Part shown: positions 12,767 to 44,809 of the stretch, piece by piece
Numbering within the stretch: the first letter of the stretch is position 1
Layout: every line of letters begins with the position of its first letter
IMG/VR virus record: IMGVR_UViG_3300032240_000688
Location: 2,199-66,198 of that record
Origin: a virus
Taxonomy: Duplodnaviria > Caudoviricetes
DNA: 64,000 nt
Direction: 5' to 3' (one strand)
Notes under the pieces: model-generated
What the model was told of the DNA's origin: nothing
The model's input: the letters and a program-made list of their open reading frames with translations, nothing else
Databases searched by the model: none
Translations under genes and position numbers: made by a program

Positions 12767-13984
12767 ATGAAAAAAAATCTAATAGCTCTTTCAATACTTT
12801 TAGCATTAAGTGGTTGTGCTGTAATACAAAGTTCAGGATTGAGTGAGACTGAACCAGAAGTAACAACACAGATGAAGAATGTCAAAAAAGAATTTGATTC
12901 TATTCCAGGCCCTGCTGTTGGTAAACAAGTTAGTGTTGCAGTTTATAGTTTTGCAGACAAGACAGGACAACGCCGCCCACAGGCCAACGTAGCAAGTTTA
13001 TCAACTGCCGTTACACAAGGCGCCGAAACATTCCTAATACAGGCTCTACAAAATGTAGGTCAAGGTCGATGGTTCGAAGTTGTTGAACGTGTAGGCATTG
13101 ATAATCTAACTAAAGAACGTCTAATCATCCGTCAGATGCGTGAAGCTTATGAAGGTTCAAATGCCAAACCTCTTATGCCAATGCAGTTTGCAGGCATGAT
13201 CATCGAAGGTGGTATCGTAGGTTACGATTCTAGTACAACCAGCGGTGGCGCTGGTATGCGCATCTTTGGTATTGGAAAACAAACACAATGGTCAACTGAT
13301 ACTGTTACTGTAAGTTTGCGAGCAATCAGTGTAAACACAGGCAAAGTTTTAATGACAGTGGTTGTACAAAAAACTATCCTAAGTACAGCAGACTCTGCTA
13401 CTGCATTGAAATTCTTTGACCAAGCAACTCAAGCGTTTGAAGCTGAAGCAGGATTGACAATTAACGAGCCAGGCACCTATGCAGTTAAAGCCGCAACAGA
13501 AATGGCAGTTGTTGAATTAATAAAAGAAGGACAGCGTAAAGGTGTTTGGGATTACAAACAAGAAGCACCTAAACCTGCGCCAGTAGTTGTTCCAGAAATA
13601 AAGAAAGAAGAAGTCAAAGTAGAGGAGAAGAAAGATGTCGTGGTTCAACCGGAAGCCCAGCCCGAAACCAAAACAGAAACCTTACCCCCTGCCCCCGCAG
13701 AAGTAAAGGTTGAAGAAAAGAAAGTAGAAATACAAAAAGACAACGATAAACCAAATGAAAGCAAAATGGCACAAGTTACTGCAAGGCCGTTATTTGGTGA
13801 GAGGAAGCTACGAGAAGGATCGTACTTGTACGCTACTGAAAATGAAGCAGGTACGAAGAAATGGTGGTTTCCCAAAGGTAGCATAGTAAGTGTAAGACAA
13901 CCTGGAAGTGAGGGTTGGTGGAGAGTAATGATAACAGACGGTACTGAGCGAGGTGGTTGGATTCGTTCTAGTCAGTTAGAATAA
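12767..13984 (+). CDS. csgG: Curli secretion channel CsgG/HfaB lipoprotein with C-terminal extension
   Basis: Lipobox LSGC, VAVYSFADKTGQR, STAVTQG, WFEVVER.G.DNL.KER.IIR, EGGIVGYD; low-complexity linker plus SH3-like tail. Confidence 0.9.
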   Translation: MKKNLIALSILLALSGCAVIQSSGLSETEPEVTTQMKNVKKEFDSIPGPAVGKQVSVAVYSFADKTGQRRPQANVASLSTAVTQGAETFLIQALQNVGQGRWFEVVERVGIDNLTKERLIIRQMREAYEGSNAKPLMPMQFAGMIIEGGIVGYDSSTTSGGAGMRIFGIGKQTQWSTDTVTVSLRAISVNTGKVLMTVVVQKTILSTADSATALKFFDQATQAFEAEAGLTINEPGTYAVKAATEMAVVELIKEGQRKGVWDYKQEAPKPAPVVVPEIKKEEVKVEEKKDVVVQPEAQPETKTETLPPAPAEVKVEEKKVEIQKDNDKPNESKMAQVTARPLFGERKLREGSYLYATENEAGTKKWWFPKGSIVSVRQPGSEGWWRVMITDGTERGGWIRSSQLE

Positions 13985-20343: not shown

Positions 20344-20982
20344 ATGAAACCTACTATTGCCCTATTTTTGTACGATCCTAAGTGTAGCGTACAGTCGGGC
20401 AATGGTGTCATCAAAGCATTAGAATCCCAATATAATTTTAAAATTTTCAGCATCAACTCGTTAGAAGATAATTTCTTTGATGATGTAGATATCGTAGCTG
20501 TGCCTGGAGGGTTTGGAGACGCTAACAGTTTTGATAAGGCGTTCAGACACAACGGTAAACGAGTTAAAGAATTTGTCCAGAATGGAGGCAAGTACTTGGG
20601 TATTTGCATGGGTGCTTACTGGACTGGTAAACACTATCTTAATATGTTAAATGACATAGACGCCGTACAATATATAACACGCCCTAAAACAGATACAAGG
20701 AGACCTCATGCTAAAGACCTTAAAATCAATTGGAATGGACTTAACACAACGATGTTTTTTTACGATGGTTGTGCTTTGGTTGGTAACGGTAAGTTCAATA
20801 CCATCGCTACGTATGCCAACGGTGATCCGATGGCTATCATTCAGGGCCGAATAGGATTAATCGGTTGTCATCCAGAGGCTGAACAATTTTGGTACGATAG
20901 TTACAGTTGGATGCGTGGCAAATACGTCAGTAAACATAACTTGCTTTTAGACTTTGTGAACCAGCTAAATACTGGATGCTAA
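20344..20982 (+). CDS. BPL-N / class I glutamine amidotransferase-like protein
   Basis: VPGG, FVQNGGKYLGICMGAY, GCHPE. Confidence 0.8.
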   Translation: MKPTIALFLYDPKCSVQSGNGVIKALESQYNFKIFSINSLEDNFFDDVDIVAVPGGFGDANSFDKAFRHNGKRVKEFVQNGGKYLGICMGAYWTGKHYLNMLNDIDAVQYITRPKTDTRRPHAKDLKINWNGLNTTMFFYDGCALVGNGKFNTIATYANGDPMAIIQGRIGLIGCHPEAEQFWYDSYSWMRGKYVSKHNLLLDFVNQLNTGC

Positions 20983-23021
20983 AAAAGATCCTATTAAGCC
21001 CATGGACTGCTCTATTAACCTTAGCGTTAGTAGTGGGCATACGTATTGCAGATCTCTCATTTGTTGAAAGCGTAAGACTACGCTACTTTGATACGCTGAT
21101 TACAGCCAAAGCTCCTACAGAAAATAATATCTATACGGTCAACATAGATGAAGCCGCATTAGACAAATATGGCCAATGGCCACTACCGAGGGTTAACTAT
21201 GCTGAAATTATTGAAGACCTTTATCATCGTCATGCTGGCCTTGTTGTGCTTAACGTGCTCATGGCTGAGCGTGATCGTACTGGTGGAGATGGGGATCTAT
21301 CTGCCGCTCTTAAACATTATCCAGTAGTACTAGGATCAGTACCTAGCAACAAAACAAAGAATACCCCACGTGTTCCTGGGAGTGCCGTTTTAGGTCCAGA
21401 GTGGTTAGATCAAATAGTTACATATCCTGGACTCATTGCCAACGTTCCGCAACTAGAAAAGAATGCCGCTGGTGTAGGTATTGTAAACACACTTCCAGAA
21501 ATTGACGGTGTTAATCGTCGTGTGCCTTTAATTGTTACAGTTGATGGCAAATTGTATCCTGGACTTGCACTAGAAACATTGCGTGTTGCTACAGGCAACG
21601 ACACATTCCAAGTTAAACTCAATGAAGGTGGTGTTGAGAAGATGCGCTTACCCGGAGAGGTTGGAATCGTTAACACAGACAATCTTGGCCGTATATGGAT
21701 TGACTGGAGTCAGAAATCAAGATCAATTAGTCTATCTAACTTGCCAAAAGACTTTGGTGGTGCTATTGTTGTAGTGGGACCAACCGCGGCAGGTATAAGT
21801 AATCCAGTGCCAACAAGCATAGGAGCAGTATTTCCCCATGATGTGCAGGCCGCAGTTATAGCCACTATTGCTAACGGTGTAGTTATACAACGACCTGATT
21901 GGGCAGATGGTGCAGAGATATTAGGCGTATTAGCCGCAGGAATTTTATTACTATTTTTAACAAGGTGGACTTATGTTGGTATCGTTTCAGGTGTTGTTAT
22001 TATTGGCTCTATTTTACCTTTATGTGGATACGCATATAGCAGTGGCCTACAGCTCGTGGACGCGACTCTTCCGATCGGGGGTCTTGTTTTGGTTATGCTT
22101 CACGCTTATGGTGTTAAGTTTGTAAGCGAGTTCTTGCAGAAGCAGGCTATAAAGAAACAGTTTGCAGGCTACTGCTCTAAAGAAGTAGTTGAACTGCTAC
22201 AAAAAGATCCGGACTTAATCAAGCGTGGGGTGCGTAAAGACGTAAGTGTTATGTTCAGTGACCTACGTGGATTTACTCCCATTGGCGAACACTACGGCGA
22301 TGATGTCGCTGGTCTTGGCAAGTACATGAACGGCTATATGGATGCTATCAGTCAGCCAATGCTAGATAACAAAGGTATGGTTATTAAGTATGTGGGTGAT
22401 GCATCAATGCACATACATGGTGCTCCTATTGAAGATCCCAATCATGCTCGTACTATCGTTAAGGTAGGACTTGAGATGTTGGACAAAGTAGATGAATATA
22501 CCAAGCTAATGGAAGCACAAGGTTTACCGCCTGCCGCAATGGGTTGGGGTTGTAACAGTGGTATTGGTTTTATTGGTGAAATGGGTTCAACAGAACGACA
22601 CAGTTATGATATCTTAGGTGACATGGTGTCAACTGCGGCACGACTAGAAGCACGTTGTAAAGCCTACGGTGTACTATGTATTATTGGTGCTGAGACATAC
22701 AATCGTACCAAAGACGATTTCTTCTACCTAATGCTAGACAACTTACAACCAAAAGGCAAGACTGTAGCAGATTTGATCTATACAGCATTACGCACACGCG
22801 GTGTTGATTATAGCAAGGACAAAGAGCAACACGAAGCGATGCATGCCTTGTATCGTGCTAAGAAGTTTGACGAAGCCGCCGCAATGTGTAAAAAGCTAAA
22901 GGGCAACTTTGGCGGACAGATGGACAAGTACTATAAGATCTGGATCGAGCGTTGCGACTTTATGAAGCAACAGGATCTAGGTGACAACTGGAATGGTGAG
23001 TTCGTAGCTCACGAGAAGTAA
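20976..23021 (+). CDS. CHASE2-domain class III adenylate/guanylate cyclase
   Basis: VNIDE..L..YGQWP.PR, DGVNRRVPL (CHASE2), 3 TMs, FSDLRGFT, KYVGDA, GDMVSTAARLE. Confidence 0.92.
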   Translation: MLKKILLSPWTALLTLALVVGIRIADLSFVESVRLRYFDTLITAKAPTENNIYTVNIDEAALDKYGQWPLPRVNYAEIIEDLYHRHAGLVVLNVLMAERDRTGGDGDLSAALKHYPVVLGSVPSNKTKNTPRVPGSAVLGPEWLDQIVTYPGLIANVPQLEKNAAGVGIVNTLPEIDGVNRRVPLIVTVDGKLYPGLALETLRVATGNDTFQVKLNEGGVEKMRLPGEVGIVNTDNLGRIWIDWSQKSRSISLSNLPKDFGGAIVVVGPTAAGISNPVPTSIGAVFPHDVQAAVIATIANGVVIQRPDWADGAEILGVLAAGILLLFLTRWTYVGIVSGVVIIGSILPLCGYAYSSGLQLVDATLPIGGLVLVMLHAYGVKFVSEFLQKQAIKKQFAGYCSKEVVELLQKDPDLIKRGVRKDVSVMFSDLRGFTPIGEHYGDDVAGLGKYMNGYMDAISQPMLDNKGMVIKYVGDASMHIHGAPIEDPNHARTIVKVGLEMLDKVDEYTKLMEAQGLPPAAMGWGCNSGIGFIGEMGSTERHSYDILGDMVSTAARLEARCKAYGVLCIIGAETYNRTKDDFFYLMLDNLQPKGKTVADLIYTALRTRGVDYSKDKEQHEAMHALYRAKKFDEAAAMCKKLKGNFGGQMDKYYKIWIERCDFMKQQDLGDNWNGEFVAHEK

Positions 23022-27202: not shown

Positions 27203-27748
27203 TTAGAATTTTGTTGCGTCTGCCCAAGATTTTTGTGCAGAGTCTTTTGGTGAAATAATTGGCACAGCTTGTCCTAGCTTCCAGTCAATTCCGATTGTTG
27301 AGTCGTTCCACAGTAAGCCATGTTCGCTTGCTGGAGTAAAGAATTCATCTTGTTGATAGTTTACGATCACATCATCCGATAGTGTCATATACCCGTGATA
27401 GAATCCCTGTGGTACGTACAACACTTGTGGAATACTTTCATCTAGGGTAACACTAAACCATTTACCAAATGTGTCAGAGTCTTTTCTTGCATCTACAAAT
27501 ACATCTAGTATTCTGCCCTTGATCACCTGTAGCATCTTGGCCACTTGATGCGGTTCTGATTGGGCATGCAAGCCCCTAATTGTGTTTTTACGTTCTGTCC
27601 AAACAGTATTGGATTGCACAAACGGACGGGATAATCCCATTTCTGTCATCCATTTGTCCGACCAACTTTCGCTGAACCACCCTCGGTTATCTGAAAACCG
27701 ATTAAATGAAACTACCTGAGCTCCGCCATCAATTTTTTGTATGTTCAT
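27203..27748 (-). CDS. rmlC: dTDP-4-dehydrorhamnose 3,5-epimerase
   Basis: DNRGWFSE, FVQSN, IRGLHAQ, DVFVDARKDS.TFGKW, VPQGFYHG. Confidence 0.9.
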   Translation of the reverse strand: MNIQKIDGGAQVVSFNRFSDNRGWFSESWSDKWMTEMGLSRPFVQSNTVWTERKNTIRGLHAQSEPHQVAKMLQVIKGRILDVFVDARKDSDTFGKWFSVTLDESIPQVLYVPQGFYHGYMTLSDDVIVNYQQDEFFTPASEHGLLWNDSTIGIDWKLGQAVPIISPKDSAQKSWADATKF

Positions 27749-27866
27749 GTTGTATCCTTTGCAGTATTTACGGTGCAGTCAATTCCTAGACTATTGATCT
27801 TGACTCACTTGTAAATATCATTATAACAGAAATACTCGAACATTACAATCATTTTAAAGGAAACAC

Positions 27867-28556
27867 ATGGACAAGTTAGAAGTTTTTATGGACGGCGATT
27901 GGACGACTCCTGAATCGAAAAAATTAAAAGATGCATACGATAAAGCAGTTGCTGGCCAACACAAACTAAGCGACTTTGTTCGTTGGATTCCGGGTATGAG
28001 TGGCTACAACTATCGTTATCTGATCAACAACCTAATGGAAACAGTCGACGATGCTCGCTATCTTGAGATTGGTAGCTGGAAAGGTTCAACCGCTTGCTCT
28101 GCAATGTATGGTAATACCTGTAAGGTTGTTTGTGTGGACAACTGGGCCGAGTTCTTTAGAGGTAGTCATGCCAAGGCAGACTTCCACACCAACACTGAAG
28201 CAGTAGTAACTGATGCAGTTGACTTCCATTTTATCGAAGATGACTTCCGTAAACTTGATCATTCCGCCCTGGGCAAGTTCAACGTCTATCTGTTTGACGG
28301 CCCACATGAAGAACAAGACCAGTACGATGGCTTGGCATTGATGCTTGATGTCCTAGACGACACGTTTACATTCATTGTCGATGACTGGAACGATGTTGAT
28401 CGTGTACAGGCAGGAACTAAACGAGCCCTTGCTGAGTTCAATTTAGAGGTTGTGGCAAAGATAGAAATACTATACAATAGTCCAGTTGACTGTGAGAATA
28501 GTCCTTGGCACAACGGATATTTCATCGCTGTTGTAAAAAAGCCACAAGTAAAATAA
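27867..28556 (+). CDS. Class I SAM-dependent methyltransferase (Methyltransf_24-like)
   Basis: YLEIGSWKGS, VCVDNW, LFDGPHE, IVDDWN. Confidence 0.8.
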   Translation: MDKLEVFMDGDWTTPESKKLKDAYDKAVAGQHKLSDFVRWIPGMSGYNYRYLINNLMETVDDARYLEIGSWKGSTACSAMYGNTCKVVCVDNWAEFFRGSHAKADFHTNTEAVVTDAVDFHFIEDDFRKLDHSALGKFNVYLFDGPHEEQDQYDGLALMLDVLDDTFTFIVDDWNDVDRVQAGTKRALAEFNLEVVAKIEILYNSPVDCENSPWHNGYFIAVVKKPQVK

Positions 28557-28560
28557 GAGA

Positions 28561-28589
28561 TTGACAAGAGACGTAAATAGTCATACAAT
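28561..28589 (+). promoter_or_regulatory. sigma70 promoter P1 of tRNA operon
   Basis: TTGACA-17-TACAAT; TAAATA inside spacer. Confidence 0.75.
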
Positions 28590-28663
28590 AGAGACAAGTT
28601 AGAAACACTTCTAGCAACAAAGACAAAAAGATTAAAATTTTTTGTCAAAGATGCAAAAAGAGG

Positions 28664-28692
28664 TTGACAACGAGACTAAATAACTGTATAAT
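28664..28692 (+). promoter_or_regulatory. sigma70 promoter P2 of tRNA operon
   Basis: TTGACA-17-TATAAT; A-rich upstream; TAAATA inside spacer. Confidence 0.88.
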
Positions 28693-28750
28693 AAACACAT
28701 AGACAGCAAGATGCTGTTTATATTAACTGAAAGAGAAACTGGAAACAGAA

Positions 28751-28897
28751 ATGAAAAGCGTAATTAATTTTAGACAACATTGCTCGATAGCCAAACAGGT
28801 CGGCATGCCTACCTATTGGTCTGCGAATAATAGTCTATCATTGGATCGCACACCAGAGGGGATTACCCCGGGGTTCTTAGGAGGATCGTGTAGTTAA
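28751..28897 (+). CDS. Putative attenuator leader peptide (48 aa) MKSVINFRQHCSIAKQVGMPTYWSANNSLSLDRTPEGITPGFLGGSCS
   Basis: ATG after purine-rich leader; all 20 aa within first 36 codons; 38 distinct codons of 48; 3' end overlaps antiterminator. Confidence 0.7.
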   Translation: MKSVINFRQHCSIAKQVGMPTYWSANNSLSLDRTPEGITPGFLGGSCS

Positions 28898-28933
28898 CAA
28901 ATAATTACACAAACTTACCAAAAGGACCCCAGG
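28868..28933 (+). promoter_or_regulatory. Putative antiterminator hairpin
   Basis: CCGGGGTTCTT (28868-78) pairs with AAGGACCCC(A)GG (28922-33); inner GTGTAGTT/AATTACAC stem spans the leader stop codon. Confidence 0.7.
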
Positions 28934-28960
28934 ACTAAACACCCTGGGGTTTTTGTTTTT
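28922..28960 (+). terminator. Intrinsic terminator between leader and tRNA array
   Basis: ACCCCAGG-9 nt-CCTGGGGT followed by TTTTGTTTTT. Confidence 0.88.
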
Positions 28961-28973
28961 CGAGTGTGAATAT

Positions 28974-29148
28974 GTGGAAACGAGGTCCACGTCCTGCACT
29001 ATAAACATGGGACAAACGGGCGGCCTAGGCGATGGAGCATCGGGAGATGTGTCGAAAAACCCTAGCGTATTAAAGCATTCTCAGGCCGCAGGGCAAGTGG
29101 GTTCATCCATGTAGAGTGCTTTAATACACACATTCGAAAGAGTGTGTT
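28974..29148 (+). ncRNA. Unidentified structured RNA ahead of first tRNA
   Basis: Several hairpins, 15-bp GTATTAAAGCATTCT/AGAGTGCTTTAATAC stem, GCGGCCT/AGGCCGC pseudoknot pairing. Confidence 0.55.
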
Positions 29149-29151
29149 AAT

Positions 29152-29240
29152 GGAGATGCGGCTACGATGGTGGAGTGGCCCCGGACTGTAAATCCGGTAC
29201 TTAAGAAACGCAATAGGTTCGAATCCTATCATCTCCACCA
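29152..29240 (+). tRNA. tRNA-Tyr(GTA)
   Basis: Cloverleaf, loop CTGTAAA, long variable arm, CCA. Confidence 0.92.
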
Positions 29241-29245
29241 AATAT

Positions 29246-29320
29246 GCCGTAGTAGTTCTCTGGGAGAGCACTGGATTGTCTATCCAACTAAGGCGGGTTC
29301 GATTCCCGTCTACGGCGCCA
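29246..29320 (+). tRNA. tRNA-Asp(GTC), atypical loop
   Basis: Cloverleaf, loop TTGTCTA, GCCA end. Confidence 0.88.
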
Positions 29321-29326
29321 ATTTAT

Positions 29327-29402
29327 TCCCTAGTAGCACAGCGGTAGTTGCACTTGACTGTTAATCAAGGTGTCCGTGGTTCGATCCCACGCTGGGGAGC
29401 CA
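29327..29402 (+). tRNA. tRNA-Asn(GTT)
   Basis: Cloverleaf, loop CTGTTAA, CCA. Confidence 0.93.
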
Positions 29403-29407
29403 ATTTT

Positions 29408-29482
29408 GGGGGATTCATATACTGGGTATTATGCCTGCCTTGCACGTAGGTCAAAAGAGTTCGATTCTCTTATCCTCCACCA
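29408..29482 (+). tRNA. tRNA-Ala(TGC)
   Basis: Cloverleaf, loop CTTGCAC, G3:U70, CCA. Confidence 0.92.
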
Positions 29483-29488
29483 AATTAT

Positions 29489-29562
29489 TCCTCTGTAGTT
29501 AAATGGTCTAACAATCGGCTGATAACCGGTCATTACAAGTTCGATTCTTGTCGGAGGAACCA
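29489..29562 (+). tRNA. tRNA-Ile(GAT)
   Basis: Cloverleaf, loop CTGATAA, CCA. Confidence 0.92.
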
Positions 29563-29566
29563 ATTT

Positions 29567-29623
29567 TAGGATACTAACAGCAAATCTAATTTCAACTATT
29601 ATGGAAAAAGAAAATGTATCCTG
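29567..29623 (+). ncRNA. CAGCAA hairpin element copy 1
   Basis: TAGGATAC-taa-CAGCAA...GTATCCTG. Confidence 0.7.
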
Positions 29624-29632
29624 TTTTATTGT

Positions 29633-29706
29633 TGGGGGATAGTGTAGCGGTAACACAACAGACTTTGACTCTGTTAGCCTAGGTTCGATCCCTAGTGCCC
29701 CTGCCA
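29633..29706 (+). tRNA. tRNA-Gln(TTG)
   Basis: Cloverleaf, loop CTTTGAC, CCA. Confidence 0.9.
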
Positions 29707-29712
29707 AGTTTT

Positions 29713-29787
29713 ACTCCGGTCGTCTAGTGGCTAGGACGCCAGCCTTTCAAGTTGGAGAAGCGGGATCGAAACCCGTTCGGAGTACCA
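29713..29787 (+). tRNA. tRNA-Glu(TTC), divergent copy
   Basis: Cloverleaf, loop CTTTCAA, T-loop ATCGAAA, CCA. Confidence 0.9.
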
Positions 29788-29791
29788 ATCA

Positions 29792-29871
29792 TGTTGTATT
29801 GCTGGTTCGAAGCCAGCTTGTAGTCAAGACTAAGAATCAGCTACAATAGTTTAACTGGTAAAACTACAACA
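29792..29871 (+). ncRNA. Circularly permuted tRNA-like RNA without anticodon loop (YrlA-like topology)
   Basis: Order: closing stem, T-arm GCTGG-TTCGAAG-CCAGC, 7-bp looped acceptor TTGTAGT/GCTACAA, TA, D-arm GTTT-AACTGGTA-AAAC, closing stem. Confidence 0.75.
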
Positions 29872-29880
29872 ATTTTTTAT

Positions 29881-29959
29881 CTCGGTGTAGCTTAGTCCGG
29901 TTTAAAGCGCCTGGTTTGGGACCAGGAGATCGTGAGTTCGAATCCCACTTCCGAGACCA
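29881..29959 (+). tRNA. tRNA-Pro(TGG)
   Basis: Cloverleaf, loop TTTGGGA, CCA. Confidence 0.92.
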
Positions 29960-29966
29960 ATTTAAT

Positions 29967-30040
29967 GCGGGTATGATGTAATGGTAACCTGAAACCTTGC
30001 CAAGGTTTATTCGCGAGTTCGATTCTCGCTACCCGCTCCA
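29967..30040 (+). tRNA. tRNA-Gly(GCC)
   Basis: Cloverleaf, loop TTGCCAA, TCCA. Confidence 0.92.
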
Positions 30041-30045
30041 GTTTT

Positions 30046-30120
30046 GCCCCTTTCGTATAATGGATAATATACAAGCCTACGAAGTTTGGGATAGTGGTTC
30101 GATTCCATTAGGGGGCGCCA
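30046..30120 (+). tRNA. tRNA-Arg(ACG)
   Basis: Cloverleaf, loop CTACGAA, CCA. Confidence 0.92.
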
Positions 30121-30141
30121 AGTTTTTTAAAGGGTAGTTGT

Positions 30142-30369
30142 ATGACAAAGAAAGAAAGCCGTAGTAGCGAAATTGACACTGACAAATGTGTTGAGCTTGC
30201 TGGTAATAACCGTTATAATCTAGTGCTAATGGCATCAGCTCGCTCACGTGAGATCAGTAGACGTAACAAAGAAAGCATGCGGCATGAACACCTGCATCCA
30301 AATATAACTGCTATTCTTGAAATCCAAGATGGCAAGATTGGTACAGAGTACCTTAAGAAAGTAAATTAA
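30142..30369 (+). CDS. rpoZ: RNA polymerase omega subunit homolog
   Basis: DKCVELAGNNRYNLVLMASARSREI...PNITAILEIQDGKI matches the omega NR(F/Y)xLVxxAxxRAR...ALxEIxxG pattern. Confidence 0.8.
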   Translation: MTKKESRSSEIDTDKCVELAGNNRYNLVLMASARSREISRRNKESMRHEHLHPNITAILEIQDGKIGTEYLKKVN

Positions 30370-30380
30370 AGGAGAATGAC

Positions 30381-30404
30381 ATGAAACGTTCAGGTAAACG
30401 TTAG
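30381..30404 (+). CDS. Mini-ORF MKRSGKR followed by a structured RNA
   Basis: AAAGGAG RBS, ATG AAA CGT TCA GGT AAA CGT TAG; stem GTGTCAACT/GGTTGGCAC begins at the stop codon. Confidence 0.45.
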   Translation: MKRSGKR

Positions 30405-30466
30405 TGTCAACTTAGACCCCGTATTGGTCCTGGTTGGCACATTAAATCAAATTAATTACGACCAAC

Positions 30467-30540
30467 CTTCCGCAAGCATTAAGGTGATGTAGCTGGCTCT
30501 TACCCAGTTGAACTAGGTTCAATACCTAGGCGGAGGACCA
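30467..30540 (+). tRNA. tRNA-Lys(CTT), atypical
   Basis: Cloverleaf, loop CTCTTAC, A at position 8, CCA. Confidence 0.82.
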
Positions 30541-30544
30541 ATAT

Positions 30545-30619
30545 GGGGGTATAACTTAGCGGCTAAAGTAGTAGGCTTTTAACCTATTAATCAGGGTTCG
30601 ATTCCCTGTGCCCCTACCA
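30545..30619 (+). tRNA. tRNA-Lys(TTT)
   Basis: Cloverleaf, loop CTTTTAA, CCA. Confidence 0.92.
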
Positions 30620-30620
30620 T

Positions 30621-30683
30621 ATAAAAACACATTCGGTATGCCCATAGCATACAGAGACATCAGAAACGTGAGTGTGTTTCTAT
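30621..30683 (+). ncRNA. Inter-tRNA long-stem element
   Basis: AAACACATTC/GAGTGTGTTT stem enclosing GTATG-CCCATAG-CATAC hairpin. Confidence 0.45.
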
Positions 30684-30685
30684 AT

Positions 30686-30760
30686 GGTAATGTAGCATAA
30701 CGGTAGTGCAACACCTTCATACGGTGCCCAGTGAAAGTTCGACTCTTTCCATTACCACCA
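30686..30760 (+). tRNA. tRNA-Met or Ile2(CAT)
   Basis: Cloverleaf, loop TTCATAC, paired 1:72, CCA. Confidence 0.85.
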
Positions 30761-30764
30761 ATTT

Positions 30765-30821
30765 TAGGATACGAACAGCAACCAATTAAATTCAACCGTT
30801 AATTGAAAAATAAGTATCCTG
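30765..30821 (+). ncRNA. CAGCAA hairpin element copy 2
   Basis: TAGGATAC-gaa-CAGCAA...TTCAA-CCGTTAA-TTGAA...GTATCCTG. Confidence 0.7.
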
Positions 30822-30829
30822 TTTTATTC

Positions 30830-30903
30830 GCCCTATTAGTTTAATGGTAGAACACCTGTTTTGTAATCAGGTAATGGCAGTTCGATTCTGTCATGGGGCA
30901 CCA
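30830..30903 (+). tRNA. tRNA-Thr(TGT)
   Basis: Cloverleaf, loop TTTGTAA, CCA. Confidence 0.9.
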
Positions 30904-30909
30904 ATTTAT

Positions 30910-30983
30910 AGCGGGTTAGAGTAACGGTAATTCAGGAGTCTCATAAGCTCCAGATGGTGGTTCGATTCCATCACCCGCAACCA
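30910..30983 (+). tRNA. tRNA-fMet(CAT)
   Basis: Loop CTCATAA, mismatched 1:72, GCGGG acceptor, ACCA. Confidence 0.85.
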
Positions 30984-30988
30984 ATCAT

Positions 30989-31077
30989 GGAAGGTTATCA
31001 GGGCTGGGCCCTGCACTGTCTTGAAAACAGATGGACTGCGAAAGCGGTTGGAGTTCGATTCTACCATCCTTCCTCCA
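30989..31077 (+). tRNA. tRNA-Ser(TGA)
   Basis: Loop CTTGAAA, long variable arm, CCA. Confidence 0.88.
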
Positions 31078-31082
31078 AATAT

Positions 31083-31156
31083 GTATCTCTGGTGTAATGG
31101 CAGCACCGCAGTCTCCAAAACTGTCAGTCGGGGTTCGAGTCCCTGGAGGTACGCCA
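31083..31156 (+). tRNA. tRNA-Trp(CCA)
   Basis: Loop CTCCAAA, GCCA. Confidence 0.92.
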
Positions 31157-31162
31157 GTCTAT

Positions 31163-31238
31163 GGTGTTAGTAGTGTAGTGGTCTGCACATTGCTCTGTGA
31201 AAGCGATAGTATGGGATCGTTCCCCATCTAACACCCCA
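31163..31238 (+). tRNA. tRNA-His(GTG)
   Basis: Loop CTGTGAA, G-1:C73, CCA. Confidence 0.9.
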
Positions 31239-31244
31239 ATTAAT

Positions 31245-31318
31245 GCCTCGTTCGTCTAATGGTAGGGCCCTGCTTTTACACGGCAGAGACGGCAGTTCGA
31301 TCCTGTCACGAGGTACCA
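31245..31318 (+). tRNA. tRNA-Val(TAC)
   Basis: Loop TTTACAC, ACCA. Confidence 0.92.
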
Positions 31319-31322
31319 ATAT

Positions 31323-31398
31323 GCAACCTTAGCTGATGTGGTCATAGCACCGGTTTGAAGCACCGAGGAAAGAGGTTCGATCCCTCTAGGTTGCACCA
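31323..31398 (+). tRNA. tRNA-Phe(GAA), atypical loop
   Basis: Loop TTGAAGC, ACCA. Confidence 0.88.
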
Positions 31399-31406
31399 AA
31401 GACAAT

Positions 31407-31498
31407 GCCAGCGAGACTTGGAAGTCAGAGAGGTCTTATAAGCCTTTTAGCGCCAGATTAGCGTTCTTGAGAAGGTTCGATCCCTTCCGCTGGTACCA
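31407..31498 (+). tRNA. Non-canonical tRNA with TAT anticodon (Ile?) and long extra arm
   Basis: 7-bp acceptor, tiny D-arm GACT-TGGA-AGTC, extended anticodon stem with loop CTTATAA, long variable region, T-arm, ACCA. Confidence 0.75.
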
Positions 31499-31499
31499 T

Positions 31500-31576
31500 G
31501 CCCTGTTACGCTAATTGGTAGTGCGGATTCTCTCAAAAGGAGTTGGATGTCTGTTCGAATCAGACACAGGGTACCA
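31500..31576 (+). tRNA. tRNA-Leu(CAA) lacking long variable arm
   Basis: Loop CTCAAAA, 5-nt variable region, ACCA. Confidence 0.82.
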
Positions 31577-31580
31577 ATTT

Positions 31581-31654
31581 GCTCTTATAATTTAATGGTA
31601 GAATGCCTTCTTGGTATGGAGGCAATGATGGTTCGATTCCCTCTAAGAGCACCA
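31581..31654 (+). tRNA. tRNA-Thr(GGT)
   Basis: Loop TTGGTAT, ACCA. Confidence 0.88.
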
Positions 31655-31661
31655 AAAGTTG

Positions 31662-31690
31662 TTGACAAAACCTTTAAACAACTGTATAAT
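31662..31690 (+). promoter_or_regulatory. Internal sigma70 promoter in tRNA array
   Basis: TTGACA-17-TATAAT. Confidence 0.88.
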
Positions 31691-31696
31691 ATACTT

Positions 31697-31712
31697 TGTT
31701 CATTAACAATTT
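31697..31712 (+). promoter_or_regulatory. rrn boxA-like antitermination element
   Basis: TGTTCATTAACAATTT versus E. coli rrn boxA TGCTCTTTAACAATTT, right after promoter. Confidence 0.55.
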
Positions 31713-31726
31713 AGAAGAAAATTTAT

Positions 31727-31802
31727 GCTCGGTTCGTCTATCGGTCTAGGACACCGCCCTTTCACGGCGGGAAGAGGGGTTCGATTCCCCTACCGAGTAC
31801 CA
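31727..31802 (+). tRNA. tRNA-Glu(TTC), canonical copy
   Basis: CCGCC-CTTTCAC-GGCGG arm, CCA. Confidence 0.95.
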
Positions 31803-31839
31803 TATTAAAGTACATTTGCAAAAGTGTATTTCAATATAT

Positions 31840-31923
31840 GCCCTGGTGGTGGAATGGTAGACACGATGGTCTTAGAAGCCATTGTCGAAAGGCGTGGGAG
31901 TTCGAGTCTCCCCTGGGGCACCA
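31840..31923 (+). tRNA. tRNA-Leu(TAG)
   Basis: Loop CTTAGAA, long variable arm, ACCA. Confidence 0.95.
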
Positions 31924-31930
31924 AATTAAT

Positions 31931-32005
31931 CTGGCCTTAGTATAATGGATAATACAGTAGGCTTCTACCCTACGAATATGGGTTCGATTCCTGTAGGCCA
32001 GGCCA
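31931..32005 (+). tRNA. tRNA-Arg(TCT)
   Basis: Loop CTTCTAC, GCCA. Confidence 0.92.
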
Positions 32006-32018
32006 GTTTAGAAAATAT

Positions 32019-32095
32019 GCACCGGTAGTGTAGCGGTTTATCACGTCGCCCTGTCACGGCGAAGGTCACGGGTTCGATCCCCGTCCGGTGCGCCA
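32019..32095 (+). tRNA. tRNA-Asp(GTC), canonical copy
   Basis: TCGCC-CTGTCAC-GGCGA arm, GCCA. Confidence 0.95.
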
Positions 32096-32114
32096 CTTTA
32101 ATAGGAGAAGCTGT

Positions 32115-32258
32115 ATGTCAAAACAAGAAGACACTTTGAACAAGGCATACGGTAATGTGCCTAAAGAAGTTGGATTTAATCTAGAGTTAGATTGGTTACC
32201 AACATGGCGTGGAGTAAAGTACTACTGGTACAAGCTCATTCGCAAGGTAACGCGATAG
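32115..32258 (+). CDS. Small hypothetical protein (47 aa) inside tRNA array
   Basis: AGGAG RBS; MSKQEDTLNKAYGNVPKEVG...WYKLIRKVTR. Confidence 0.6.
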   Translation: MSKQEDTLNKAYGNVPKEVGFNLELDWLPTWRGVKYYWYKLIRKVTR

Positions 32259-32267
32259 TAAGAATAC

Positions 32268-32356
32268 GGAGGGGTCCCATAATGGTATTGGAGCAGATTG
32301 CTAATCTGTCGGTCGTTTAATACGGCTTCGGGGTTCAAGTCCCCGTCCCTCCGCCA
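32268..32356 (+). tRNA. tRNA-Ser(GCT)
   Basis: Loop TTGCTAA, long variable arm, GCCA. Confidence 0.92.
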
Positions 32357-32361
32357 TTTAT

Positions 32362-32439
32362 GCACAGGTGCCCGAGAGGCCCAAGGGAACGGATTGCAAA
32401 CCCGTAAAACCGTCAGTTCAAATCTGACCCTGTGCTCCA
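32362..32439 (+). tRNA. tRNA-Cys(GCA)
   Basis: Loop TTGCAAA, TCCA. Confidence 0.92.
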
Positions 32440-33158
32440 ACTGAAACAAAATTATCAAGGTGATCGATTTTGTTCAAATCAAGATGTTTAATTTGACTAT
32501 AATGAACACCCGGTGGCAATCCAGCTCGTGTTCTTTTAATATCAATTAAAAAGCACAATCGCCAATTTGGTGTGTTATTATAAGCACTATGCGCAAATTG
32601 ATTATTAAAAGCAAATATATCGTCCCATGTTACGATTTCACCAAACACTTCGAAATATATATCGCCTTTGGGTATAATTAAGGGAATGTGGATTCGTATG
32701 AAGTCACCGTCTCTGTTTTCAACATCAGTATGTCTGTTTATTTTGGAATTAGGGCCGAGAAGAGAATAGTTAGCGATCGGACAGTCATCTCCGTACTCTG
32801 CAATTATTTTCATTGCAGTCGGGTACTGTGAAATAGTTTCCTGATTAGTATCTTGAAAATATATTCCTGTATCTTTGTTAGAATATTTTAAACCTCTTGA
32901 CCTCCACATATCTATGTTTGTAGTGGAATCATTCTGTTGAACAAGCCAGGTTAATACTTTATCTGGAAGTTCTTCACGGCCGCCTATGCTAGGAGCCGAT
33001 GCGGCTTTGGCCATTTGGTTTAAACTATGAATTTTATTAGATGATTTTAACGGCCCAAGAAATTCATCTGTAAGGGCTTGTTGGAAACTCATTAGATAAT
33101 TTGCAATTGGAATTTCGTGGCGCCTATAAATTCGTTGGGGGAGATCATTTAGATTCAT
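32418..33158 (-). CDS. Aspartyl/asparaginyl beta-hydroxylase-like 2OG oxygenase
   Basis: YSLLGPNSKINRHTD, RIHIPLIIP, FNNQFAHSAYN, RLCFLIDI. Confidence 0.8.
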   Translation of the reverse strand: MNLNDLPQRIYRRHEIPIANYLMSFQQALTDEFLGPLKSSNKIHSLNQMAKAASAPSIGGREELPDKVLTWLVQQNDSTTNIDMWRSRGLKYSNKDTGIYFQDTNQETISQYPTAMKIIAEYGDDCPIANYSLLGPNSKINRHTDVENRDGDFIRIHIPLIIPKGDIYFEVFGEIVTWDDIFAFNNQFAHSAYNNTPNWRLCFLIDIKRTRAGLPPGVHYSQIKHLDLNKIDHLDNFVSVGAQGQI

Positions 33159-33197
33159 AAAAATATTTAGTTACCCAATGTAGCCACTTTTAAGTTT

Positions 33198-33259
33198 TAG
33201 GATAGCAACAGCAAATTTAAAAAATCTTTTCTTGAAAAAAAGCCAAAAATGCTATCCTG
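33198..33259 (+). ncRNA. CAGCAA hairpin element copy 3
   Basis: TAGGATAG-caa-CAGCAA...CTTTT-CTTGAAA-AAAAG...CTATCCTG. Confidence 0.7.
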
Positions 33260-33275
33260 TTTTATCCAAAAAGAG

Positions 33276-33304
33276 TTGACACAACTCCTTGATTCGTATA
33301 TAAT
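33276..33304 (+). promoter_or_regulatory. sigma70 promoter
   Basis: TTGACA-17-TATAAT, followed by a small GCAA-loop hairpin. Confidence 0.88.
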
Positions 33305-33337
33305 ATACACATAGCAAGGCAACTTGTTAAGCAGTTT

Positions 33338-33446
33338 TAGGATCGGTTCAGCAATTTACTATACTTGAAGGTCGGACCGCTCTTCGGAGCACCTCGACGA
33401 ACTGGTTTGGAGATCCAGTCTAATCAAATCGACAACAACGATCCTG
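33338..33446 (+). ncRNA. CAGCAA hairpin element copy 4 (long)
   Basis: TAGGATCG-gtt-CAGCAA...GCTC-TTCG-GAGC...CGATCCTG. Confidence 0.7.
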
Positions 33447-33458
33447 TTTGAATTTATA

Positions 33459-33519
33459 TAGGTTAAGTTCAGCAATCAATTTTCACGCATATCGAAAACT
33501 GCCGTAAGGCATTAACCTG
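33459..33519 (+). ncRNA. CAGCAA hairpin element copy 5, abutting RBS of DUF2828 gene
   Basis: TAGGTTAA-gtt-CAGCAA...TGCC-GTAA-GGCA-TTAACCTG then AAAGGAAG and ATG. Confidence 0.7.
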
Positions 33520-33531
33520 AAAGGAAGTATC

Positions 33532-34935
33532 ATGTCTACATTCGTAGAAGCAATCGCAAATCAAGAAGCCCGTACTGCCAATGGCATGAAGGCTCGCAAG
33601 TCTACAGCCAACAAGGTTGTTGATTTGTTTTACAACATCGGTGCAAGCCGTGGCAAGGATATCGTACCTGCATTTGTAGGTGCCTACACTGAAGACCGCG
33701 AACTTGCACTTCGTATCGCACTATGGGCACGTGATGCTCGTGGTGGCGCAGGTGAACGTGACTTGTTCCGTTCAATCCTGAAGCACTTAGAAAAGACCGA
33801 CATCGATGCGGCCTTTGCTCTGCTTCGCAAGATTCCAGAGCTAGGTCGTTGGGACGACATCTTTGCTTTCACAACTCCAGAGTTGAAGAAGGCCGCATAC
33901 ACAATGCTAGGCGACGCACTCCGTGCTCAAAATGGCTTGGCGGCTAAGTGGACTCCTCGTAAGGGTGAAGTAGCACGTGAAATCCGTGAGTTCTTTGGTA
34001 TGAGCCCAAAGCAGTACCGTAAGAGCCTAGTAGCACTTACTAAGGTTGTTGAAACACAAATGTGTGCCAACGACTGGGATAACATCAACTTTAGCCATGT
34101 ACCATCTGTAGCGGCCAGCCGCTACAAGAAGGCATTTCACCGTCATACAGAAAAGTTCGCTGAGTATGTAGCGGCCTTGGTTAAGGGAGATCCAACTGTA
34201 AAGGTAAACGCTTCGGCAATTTACCCTTACGATGTCTTGAAGGGAGTGAACTACCGTTCATTCGACAAGACAGAAACTGACCACATCGTAGCGCAATGGG
34301 AAGCCTTGCCAAACTATGTGGGTAGCGCCAACATCCTACCAATGGTAGACGTGAGTGGCTCTATGAGCTGTCCAGCTGGCAAGAACACTTCGGTGACTTG
34401 CATGGACGTTGCAGTTTCATTAGGTTTGTACCTTGCAGACAAGAACACTGGCAAGTTCAAGGATACGTTCTTGACTTTCAGCGACAAGTCTGAACTTGTT
34501 ACTCTAAAGGGCAACGTAGTTCAAAAGATGGCCCAAATGGTTAAGTCCGATTGGGACATGAGTACAAACCTACATGCCGCTTTCAACAAGATTCTTGATG
34601 TAGCGGTTAAGAATGAAGTGCCTCAAGCAGAAATGCCAGAAATGGTTTTGATCTTGAGTGACATGCAATTCAACCAATGCGTTCGTCAAGACGACAGCGC
34701 AATGGAAATGATCGAACGCAAGTATGCGGCCGCAGGTTACTCTGTGCCACAAGTTGTGTTCTGGAACTTGAACAGTTCTGACAATGTGCCTGTAAAGGCA
34801 GACAAGTCAGGTGCGGCATTGGTAAGCGGGTTCAGTCCAGCTATCATGAAGGCCCTGCTTGCCGCAGACATGAGCGAGTTCACACCAGAAGGGATCATGT
34901 TAAAGACTGTGATGAGCGATCGTTACAGCTTCTAA
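33532..34935 (+). CDS. DUF2828 family protein (TROVE/Ro60-like helical domain plus vWA domain)
   Basis: RDARGGAGER, GRWDD, LAAKWTPR, INFSHVPSVA, MIDAS DVSGSM, STNL, ILSDMQF, FWNL, VSGFSP. Confidence 0.85.
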   Translation: MSTFVEAIANQEARTANGMKARKSTANKVVDLFYNIGASRGKDIVPAFVGAYTEDRELALRIALWARDARGGAGERDLFRSILKHLEKTDIDAAFALLRKIPELGRWDDIFAFTTPELKKAAYTMLGDALRAQNGLAAKWTPRKGEVAREIREFFGMSPKQYRKSLVALTKVVETQMCANDWDNINFSHVPSVAASRYKKAFHRHTEKFAEYVAALVKGDPTVKVNASAIYPYDVLKGVNYRSFDKTETDHIVAQWEALPNYVGSANILPMVDVSGSMSCPAGKNTSVTCMDVAVSLGLYLADKNTGKFKDTFLTFSDKSELVTLKGNVVQKMAQMVKSDWDMSTNLHAAFNKILDVAVKNEVPQAEMPEMVLILSDMQFNQCVRQDDSAMEMIERKYAAAGYSVPQVVFWNLNSSDNVPVKADKSGAALVSGFSPAIMKALLAADMSEFTPEGIMLKTVMSDRYSF

Positions 34936-42883: not shown

Positions 42884-44809
42884 ATGTCAAAGATTATCGG
42901 TATCGACTTAGGTACAACCAATTCGTGTGTAGCCATTATTGAAAATGGTGTTGCAAAAGTTCTAGAGAACGCAGAAGGCGCTCGCACTACCCCAAGTATT
43001 ATTGCTTATGGCGATGAAATTCTAGTAGGTGCACCAGCAAAGCGTCAAGCAGTAACTAACCCAAAAAATACTATCTATGCGGCCAAGCGTTTGATTGGTC
43101 GTAAGTTCAGTGAGAAAGAAGTACAAAAAGACATCGACCTGATGCCGTACAAAATCATTCAAGCAGATAACGGCGATGCTTGGATCGAAGCTAATAACGA
43201 CAAATTGGCACCCCCACAAATTTCAGCAGAAGTTCTTCGCAAGATGAAAAAGACTGCGGAAGATTATCTGGGCTCAGAAGTAACACAGGCCGTTATTACA
43301 GTTCCTGCTTACTTCAATGACGCACAACGTCAAGCTACTAAAGATGCAGGTAAGATCGCAGGACTAGAAGTACTACGTATTATCAACGAGCCAACAGCGG
43401 CCGCACTTGCATATGGAGTAGATAAAAATGATAAAAGAGATCGTAAGATTGCTGTGTATGACCTTGGTGGCGGTACTTTTGATGTGTCTATCATTGAAAT
43501 TGCTTCAGTCGACGGTGATAAACAAATTGAAGTTCTCTCTACCAACGGTGACACATTCCTCGGCGGTGAAGACTTTGACCAACGTATTATGGATTTCTTA
43601 GTTGACGAATTCCGTAAAGACAACGGTGTTGACCTTAAGAAAGATGTTCTAGCACTACAGCGTTTGAAAGAAGCCTCTGAAAAAGCCAAGATTGAATTGT
43701 CAAGTTCAGCACAAACAGATGTTAACTTGCCTTACATCACAGCAGACGCCTCGGGTCCTAAACACATGAATGTCAAGTTGACTCGTGCTAAGTTAGAAGA
43801 CCTAGTAGCAGAGTTAATTGAGCGATCAGTACAGCCTTGCAAAACTGCTATGAAAGATGCAGGCTGTGACGCTTCTGATATTGATGAAGTTATTCTAGTC
43901 GGCGGTATGACCCGCATGCCAAAGGTACAGGAAACTGTAGAGAAGTTGTTTGGTAAGGCTCCACGTAAAGATGTAAATCCAGACGAAGCAGTTGCCGCAG
44001 GTGCCGCTATCCAAGGTGACGTGTTAGGCGGTGGACGCAATGACGTTCTATTGCTAGACGTAACACCTTTGAGCTTGGGCATCGAAACACAAGGTGGTGT
44101 TATGACTAAGATGATTAGAAAGAACACTACAATTCCTACAAAGTTTAGCCAAACATATTCAACTGCTGATGACAACCAACCAGCAGTTACTATCAAAGTC
44201 TACCAAGGCGAACGTGAGTTAGTGATAGGTAACAAGTTGTTGGGCGAATTTAATCTTGAAGGTATCGATCCTGCACCACGCGGTACTCCACAAATTGAAG
44301 TAACATTTGACATTGATGCCAACGGTATCCTTGACGTACATGCTAAGGACAAGAAAACTGGCAAAGAAAAGAAAATTACTATCAAAGCAAGTTCTGGTCT
44401 GAGCGAAGCTGAAATTGAAAAGATGGTACAAGACGCTGAAGCCAATGCAGAGGAAGATAAAAAGACTCTAGAATTGATCAACGTTAGAAACGAAAGTGAT
44501 TCAGTTATTGCCCAGACTGAAAGACAGATGAAGGATCTAGGCCATTTGGTATCCGACGATGAACGTGCTCTAGCAGAAGGCTTGATTGCTAAATCCAAAG
44601 AAGCCAATATAGGAACTGATAAACAAGCTATTGTAGAAGCATCAACTGCACTTAAAGATATCCTTGGTAAATTCCTGCAAAAATCTGCAGAAGTTAAGGA
44701 ATCAACTAAGCAAGAAAATGAAATGGACAAGGGCAAGCGTCCAGAAGTTGATGATATGCATGCCGGTCAGGACAGCGTAGTTGATGCTGATTTTACCGAA
44801 GTTAAATGA
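42884..44809 (+). CDS. dnaK: Chaperone DnaK (Hsp70)
   Basis: [50 protein letters not shown]. Confidence 0.97.

Follow-up and report, generated by a model that had tools for sequence, protein, structure and literature searches.

The window examined here is a 64,000-nucleotide (nt; 64 kb) stretch of DNA from a lake phage (Duplodnaviria; Caudoviricetes), positions 2,199 to 66,198 of the 66-kb IMG/VR virus record IMGVR_UViG_3300032240_000688, for which CheckV gives a completeness of 18%. Within it, two promoter-like sites are followed by a leader containing a 48-codon open reading frame (ORF), then by an intrinsic terminator and a large array of tRNA genes. An earlier note, made from the letters alone, had proposed that this leader is an attenuator which samples the whole genetic code and gates the tRNA array. 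The features of the locus, in order, are as follows.

27867-28556: methyltransferase gene, upstream of the promoters.
28561-28589, + strand: upstream promoter-like site, TTGACA-17 nt-TACAAT, agreeing with the consensus at 11/12 positions.
28664-28692, + strand: proximal promoter, TTGACA-17 nt-TATAAT, 12/12 positions; the hexamers align among relatives.
About 28699, + strand: putative transcription start from the proximal promoter.
28699-28721, + strand: 5' hairpin of the leader transcript, predicted by folding and found in the same place, with different sequences, in many relatives.
28751-28897, + strand: leader ORF, 48 codons and a TAA stop, with all 20 amino acids present by codon 36.
28797-28814, + strand: hairpin in the middle of the ORF, AGG-GG...CC-CCT, seen in the RNAalifold consensus and in the single-sequence fold.
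28816-28827 with 28845-28856, + strand: helix between the stretch around the Trp codon and the stretch coding for DRTP (one-letter code), a possible pause hairpin.
28868-28878, + strand: region 2, the 5' strand of the antiterminator, within codons 40-43.
28888-28896 with 28902-28910, + strand: hairpin of 9 base pairs (bp) around the stop codon (TAA at 28895-28897).
28922-28933, + strand: region 3, the 5' arm of the terminator and also the 3' strand of the antiterminator.
28943-28959, + strand: region 4, the 3' arm of the terminator with its T-rich tail.
28958-29151, + strand: structured RNA spacer separating the terminator from the first tRNA (minimum free energy -64.6 kcal/mol, z = -2.98, long stem at about 29067-29127), expected from read-through transcripts only.
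29152-32439, + strand: tRNA array, with 28 ARAGORN calls and what looks like a type II tRNA at 30989-31073.

The tandem promoters at 28561 and 28664, the ORF and the terminator all lie where the earlier note had placed them. The core stem of the terminator (28926-28933 with 28943-28950) can be extended to 12 bp (28922-28933 with 28943-28954), and closes a 9-nt loop ahead of the T-rich tail, which runs to 28959. A simple scan skipped this terminator on the + strand, apparently because its loop exceeded the limit of 8 nt, and listed the complementary hairpin on the - strand. Among the related leaders described below, at least two promoter-like sites were present in 78 of the 112 that have at least 240 nt of upstream sequence. 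In the window, no promoter-like site (at least 9/12 positions) was found between the terminator and the first tRNA gene, tRNA-Tyr. Perfect 12/12 sigma-70 consensus promoters also occur at 31662-31690, just before tRNA-Glu (31727), and at 33276-33304.

Codon use in the leader ORF of the window was compared with several expectations. The hand counts of the earlier note proved exact: 38 of the 48 codons are different, as are 33 of the first 37, and the twentieth amino acid is reached at codon 36. The probability of at least 38 distinct codons was 0.0009 for independent draws from phage codon usage, and 0.034 if the 61 codons were used uniformly. That level was reached by one of 279 windows taken from real genes, and by one of the 99 short ATG ORFs of the window, presumably the leader ORF itself. 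For all 20 amino acids within 36 codons, the probability under phage codon usage was 0.003. Amino-acid diversity lies far above that of random ORFs, and it also exceeds the phylogeny-aware null given below. The phage tRNA set of the window has 28 distinct anticodons and, as the note had it, each finds a cognate codon in the leader except Lys-CTT and Arg-TCG.

Related leaders were collected from uncultured viruses. The exact 32-nt terminator string is present in 22 IMG/VR contigs, the flanks of which are 47-73% identical to the window. Two degenerate patterns, drawn from the mid-ORF stretch coding for DRTPE, matched 89 and at least 120 stretches. Six chance matches were left out, along with nine loci that ran into a sequence end or were mis-anchored; among the matches listed, 151 loci plus the window contain a complete ORF, and these encode 117 distinct peptides. 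Against deposited phages, blastn of positions 28400-29250 matched in the tRNA-Tyr part alone, at 75-80% identity. A search for relatives through the flanking methyltransferase produced three distant loci, which were not used; two came from contigs that carry the name of giant-virus metagenome-assembled genomes (MAGs). A contig scan gave no host signal, with three short contigs falling in MAGs of three unrelated taxa. The uncultured freshwater phages in which the element is common form a large group.

All 20 amino acids are present in 111 of the 117 distinct peptides, and the remaining six have 19. A column-shuffle null gave a mean of 27.6 complete peptides (standard deviation 4.1, maximum 44, 2000 runs). 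A second null, in which evolution was simulated on the inferred tree with column-specific residue frequencies and fitted site rates, gave a mean of 27.2 (standard deviation 10.4, maximum 58, 600 runs). The first 68 peptides produced the same result against the nulls. The DRTPE columns fixed by the search patterns are retained in the null, which thereby allows for ascertainment. Among the peptides recovered with the terminator string alone, 13 of 14 were complete by computation; of two counted by eye, L007 was complete and L005 was without Phe. The comparison of these sequences shows that selection maintains a complete amino-acid set within about 47 codons.

The rarest residues reveal how the set is kept. 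Cys occurs at a mean of 1.15 copies, exactly once in 96 of the 117 peptides, and its sole copy is found in 15 different columns; it is absent from three peptides, compared with 37 expected under a Poisson model. His (mean 1.14 copies, one copy in 102 peptides, 10 columns) and Tyr (mean 1.21 copies, one copy in 95 peptides, eight columns) are absent from none. The sole Cys, His and Tyr therefore shift between columns yet almost never vanish, so that a rare residue is replaced elsewhere when it is lost. Placement along the ORF was also considered. In 83 of the 117 leaders, all 20 amino acids have been reached at the Glu of DRTPE, 2-6 codons ahead of region 2. For 12 amino acids, 449 of 465 sole copies lay upstream of region 2, where a stalled ribosome would leave region 2 free, and 352.5 would be expected from length. 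This bias is only indicative, since the leaders are related and the tail of the ORF is under RNA constraints.

Selection for codon diversity itself was a weaker signal. Synonymous codons were sampled from the usage of the window with each peptide held fixed. The leaders averaged 36.0 distinct codons against 33.3 expected (mean z = 1.39), and the leader of the window had 38 against 34.2 (P = 0.05). Once the peptides are taken as given, little excess of codon diversity is left, and selection for all codons was rejected as the main signal. The leaders lean towards G/C-ending codons, a shift that may come in part from conserved G+C-rich RNA motifs, such as the GGG in the region-2 motif; the unusual codon use may thus reflect RNA-structure constraints and not codon sampling. 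The pan-codon leader of the earlier note is better described as pan-amino-acid. On the sequences compared, the selected property is amino-acid completeness, not codon completeness.

The leader ORF is intact in all 152 readable loci of the family, with lengths of 42-52 amino acids, and the ATG column is invariant in the MAFFT alignment A2. The peptide had been expected to be unconserved. This holds for the N-terminal third, which drifts freely among relatives, and fails further on, where Trp, Asp, Thr and one Gly never vary and Arg, Pro and Glu hardly do. An intact frame with a conserved core is what would be seen of an ordinary gene for a small protein, equipped with a promoter and a terminator of its own, whose peptide acts in trans while the tRNAs are transcribed through leaky read-through or from other promoters. 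Leader peptides that act in trans do exist, for example peTrpL (PMC7298713). No match to the peptide was found in Pfam or PHROG, nor by tblastn against 50,697 phage records (E up to 1), a search in which a query of 48 amino acids has little power. The conserved Trp, DRTPE and Gly sit in predicted RNA helices or in the antiterminator strand, and third codon positions in the conserved stretches are conserved as well. A folded protein of 47 residues would give no reason for a single Cys, His or Tyr to wander over 8-15 columns and yet be retained. We consider a small-protein gene unlikely, and the pairing data below bear on it further.

Region 2 can pair with 28922-33 in a long helix that encloses the stop-codon hairpin, and both this antiterminator and the terminator that it excludes were confirmed. 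Alignments A2 and A3 place the region-2 motif in two registers, one column apart, and for this reason pairs were counted from anchored motifs and compared with slid controls. Between the 7-nt core of region 2 and the 5' arm of the terminator, standard pairs were formed in 815 of 819 cells across the 117 leaders. When the partner was slid by 1-2 nt, 236-539 of the 819 cells paired. Homologous loci have thus kept the complementarity that the earlier note had predicted for them.

At four of the seven pairs, the two strands of the antiterminator have both changed. Pair 1 is GC in 63 leaders, AT in 41, GT in 10 and mismatched in three. Pairs 3 and 7 change together in L131, in which the 3' arm of the terminator is altered too. 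Pair 6 is changed in L161 and L163, and is G-T in the window. The 3' arm of the terminator varies together with the 5' arm in relatives. The region-2 core is read in two phases, as Gly-Ser or as Arg/Gly-Val (53 and 62 of the 117 leaders), which indicates a constraint on the RNA. Neither the retention of one motif in two phases that code for different residues, nor the compensatory changes with the terminator arm, is explained by a small protein. In all 117 distinct leaders a local hairpin of 5 bp or more contains the stop codon, and the stems differ in sequence.

Two contigs carry a natural deletion variant. In L168 and L162, the region-2 motif is joined straight to the 3' arm of the terminator and the T-tract, about 25 nt after the DRTPE-coding motif. 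The deletion removes the stop hairpin and the 5' arm of the terminator, as expected from recombination between similar G-rich strands.

Folding was performed on partial, complete and masked leaders. With the 3' arm of the terminator left off, the full set of seven core antiterminator pairs appeared in the minimum-energy fold of 111 of the 117 leaders. In the window, the energy of the antiterminator state was -32.4 kcal/mol (3' arm absent) and that of the terminator state -39.7 kcal/mol (full sequence). When the sequence from region 2 through 12 nt past the stop was masked, as by a ribosome near the end of the ORF, the terminator remained. No conserved region 1 was seen that would sequester region 2, as happens in classical leaders, and an untranslated leader is accordingly predicted to read through. 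The nascent fold holds the antiterminator, and so does the minimum-energy fold of 93 of the 117 complete leaders, which again suggests that read-through would be the untranslated default and that termination would need a timely ribosome.

The leader as a whole (28699-28962) is densely structured, with z = -5.9. The helix between the Trp and DRTP stretches paired in 1096 of 1404 anchored cells, against 413-582 when slid, with few true compensatory changes; this helix accounts for much of the conservation of nucleotides, and a role as pause hairpin is a guess. Strong predicted structure, several conserved helices, conservation at the level of nucleotides and a Shine-Dalgarno motif that is weak or absent in most leaders might all point to a structured non-coding RNA in which the open frame is incidental, either a self-terminated small RNA or an attenuator that responds to a protein or a small molecule. 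Were the frame incidental, it would not have remained open in all 152 loci, through an N-terminal third that varies. The complete sets in 111 of 117 peptides, where about 27 are expected, and the concentration of sole copies upstream of region 2 (449 of 465) would go unexplained. No Rfam family matched at E up to 1, T-box included; in a cmscan of 27500-33500 at that threshold only tRNA-type and weak chance matches were returned, none of them in 28699-29151. We find a non-coding RNA with an incidental frame very unlikely.

The leader is linked to tRNA genes throughout the family. A tRNA gene on the same strand lies within 6 kb in 139 of the 142 loci that have at least 400 nt of downstream sequence, at a median gap of 427 nt, and the three loci without one have less than 600 nt. 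The 41 loci with at least 5 kb downstream carry 14-33 tRNAs. Counted over 6 kb, the 37 distinct arrays represent 11-20 amino acids, with all 20 in five arrays, in loci that are incomplete in sequence. In 51 of the 139 loci the array opens with a tRNA for Tyr, in 21 with Asn, in 14 with Asp and in 12 with Cys; the array of the window begins Tyr, Asp, Asn. The tRNAs for Tyr, Asn and Asp include known targets of anticodon nucleases. The spacer before the first tRNA is partly conserved in related loci.

In the window, ARAGORN identified 28 tRNAs in the contiguous array and four more downstream, with 28 distinct anticodons for 20 amino acids. A 29th tRNA of the array (30989-31073) was missed by ARAGORN and scored 45.9 bits under the Rfam tRNA-Sec model, for which the threshold is 47. 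It has a long variable arm and, by eye, the anticodon loop CUUGAAA; it looks like a type II tRNA-Ser(UGA), which would read the TCA and TCG codons of the leader. Adjoining the array is a gene for a 467-amino-acid DUF2828/DUF7788 protein (33532-34935), of a kind that is widespread in phages and annotated as RNA-binding in some deposited records. This neighbour did not place the lineage.

A classical attenuator is recognized by a short ORF that precedes the regulated genes and is flanked by a promoter and an intrinsic terminator, by mutually exclusive folds with an antiterminator strand within reach of a ribosome on the ORF, and by a run or cluster of codons for the sensed amino acid. The first two are found at this locus. 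The third is not: the leaders have no regulatory runs or clusters of codons, and Cys, His, Tyr and Trp are mostly single.

We think it probable that the leader is a ribosome-dependent transcription attenuator which senses slow decoding of any amino acid and stands at the head of a phage tRNA cluster. Both sigma-70-type promoters would give transcripts that open with the leader ORF of about 48 codons, in which the complete amino-acid set is kept, nearly all of it upstream of the 7-11 nt of region 2. As long as region 2 is free of ribosome, the antiterminator and the stop-codon hairpin would form first, and polymerase would read on into the structured spacer RNA and the tRNA genes. A fast ribosome would cover region 2 and the stop hairpin while polymerase makes the terminator; the antiterminator would be blocked, the terminator would form and transcription would stop. 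Since termination would require fast decoding of all codons, slowing at any one of them, by starvation, by tRNA cleavage through a host defence or by a general block of translation, would raise synthesis of the phage tRNAs. We infer that the ORF is translated, that a stall would lead to read-through, and that the natural trigger would be starvation or anticodon nucleases.

How specific the signal would be is a separate question. We lean slightly towards a universal sensor of charged tRNA, in which a shortage of any single aminoacyl-tRNA would induce the phage tRNAs. Such a shortage could arise when the host starves or when one of its anticodon nucleases acts, and the leader would form a circuit of both counter-defence and supply in which one ribosome samples all 20 amino acids. 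Alternatively, a translation-coupled attenuator might report overall translation capacity (ribosomes, inhibitors, host shut-off), not individual charged tRNAs. Default antitermination with ribosome-dependent termination would respond to any slowed translation, and upstream ORFs (uORFs) that sense several classes of ribosome-targeting antibiotics are described (PMC12121999). A sensor of capacity would not need the complete amino-acid alphabet, yet the alphabet is what selection maintains, and the regulated genes are tRNAs. We regard a pure capacity sensor as improbable.

Several observations weigh against the attenuator proposed here, or limit it. A Shine-Dalgarno-like motif (AGGA or AAGG, at -18 to -4) is present in only 28 of the 117 leaders; the leader of the window has none, whereas 24 of 56 long ORFs of the window have one. 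In a subgroup, also of 28 leaders (L033, L037, L045 and others), the -10 hexamer is 5-14 nt from the ATG, the 5' hairpin is missing and no Shine-Dalgarno motif is seen, so the mRNA would be nearly leaderless. Because the conserved Trp, DRTPE and Gly overlap RNA elements, these residues say little about translation. The dense structure of the ORF could hinder ribosomes. The antiterminator stays in the minimum-energy fold of most complete leaders, as described above, and termination would need tight coupling of ribosome and polymerase, which is assumed. Sensing would also be uneven: 30 of 117 leaders get one amino acid only after the Glu of DRTPE (Val in 20), and part of region 2 would be hidden under a ribosome that stalls at the last sensor codons, those for Pro or Glu of DRTPE. 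Kinship among the leaders inflates all cell counts, and the AT/GC exchange at pair 1 may go back to a small number of events.

The reach of the switch is limited as well. Promoter-like sites occur within the array at 30191 (10/12) and 31662 (12/12), and the switch therefore cannot gate all 29 tRNAs alone. Gating of the whole array, as first proposed, is thus to be reduced: all 29 tRNAs do lie downstream but, as the sequence indicates, the switch would gate the first tRNA block fully and the rest, which could be fed from the sites at 30191 and 31662, at most partly.

Contigs from RNA libraries were found for the leader and spacer. Two are identical to the window, X16 (28774-28943) and X17 (28845-28949), and attest presence in RNA libraries only. 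A contig from a relative, with seven differences, spans the terminator (28924-29009) and proves no read-through transcript; a relative's contig also covers 28976-29036 of the spacer. Such contigs show neither ends, strand nor level, and DNA carry-over is possible. The bins at 28500-28647 that were uncovered in all four RNA runs, and the contig stops at 28943 and 28949, are not taken as evidence.

Elsewhere in the window, some cargo unusual for a phage was observed. It comprises a protein with CHASE2 and adenylate/guanylate cyclase domains (20976-23021), a CsgG-like curli secretion component (12767-13984) with a curlin-repeat protein close by, a full-length Hsp70 (42884-44809), and the DUF2828/DUF7788 protein beside the tRNA array.

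The leader was compared with known regulatory systems. In classical leaders (trpL, hisL, pheL, thrL, ilv), codons for one amino acid, or for a few, stand in runs, and the genes controlled are those for the corresponding biosynthesis. The phage leader has the same parts, namely a promoter, a short ORF, exclusive pairings (2:3 versus 3:4), an intrinsic terminator and control by ribosome position, but most amino acids occur once or twice and the genes regulated are tRNAs. The T-box riboswitch binds one specific tRNA directly and senses its uncharged form, with no need of translation. Like the T-box, the phage leader RNA has alternative terminator and antiterminator folds that are proposed to report tRNA charging; unlike the T-box, of which Rfam finds no match here, its signal would be carried by an ORF.

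The closest published system that we found is the attenuator formed by the uORF of mycobacterial whiB7 (wblC) (PMC10274678). There, stalling leads to antitermination, the amino acids sensed follow the composition of the uORF, and loss of the start codon raises basal expression. The uORF of M. smegmatis encodes all amino acids but Cys; whiB7 uORFs are alanine-enriched and vary between species, that of M. tuberculosis lacking several amino acids including Trp. The two systems share a uORF in the 5' leader followed by alternative antiterminator and terminator, with read-through upon a stall established there and proposed here, and the raised basal expression upon loss of the start codon is what a fold with default antitermination predicts for the phage leader. 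In contrast to the alanine-enriched and variable whiB7 uORFs, the phage leaders are complete in most cases and not enriched in Ala (mean 2.70 copies per about 47 residues). The whiB7 leader precedes a bacterial transcription factor in Actinobacteria, whereas the phage leader is on a virus contig and precedes tRNA genes. No sequence relationship between the two was found (no Rfam match).

No paper describing a complete-alphabet leader before phage tRNAs was found by full-text searches, which leave supplements and most subscription journals outside. The class of mechanism, attenuation by a leader peptide, is already known; what is new is the complete alphabet of 20 amino acids wired to phage tRNA genes. 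Classical attenuators listen for one or a few amino acids, while the phage leader carries all 20 in about 47 codons. If the proposal is true, it would provide a compact natural part that turns slow decoding of any codon into transcription, with possible use as a reporter of translation stress. Phage tRNA arrays would be inducible on demand, and not simply constitutive supplements to codon usage. Phage tRNAs would thereby be tied to the tRNA-targeting defences of the host through a concrete and testable circuit.

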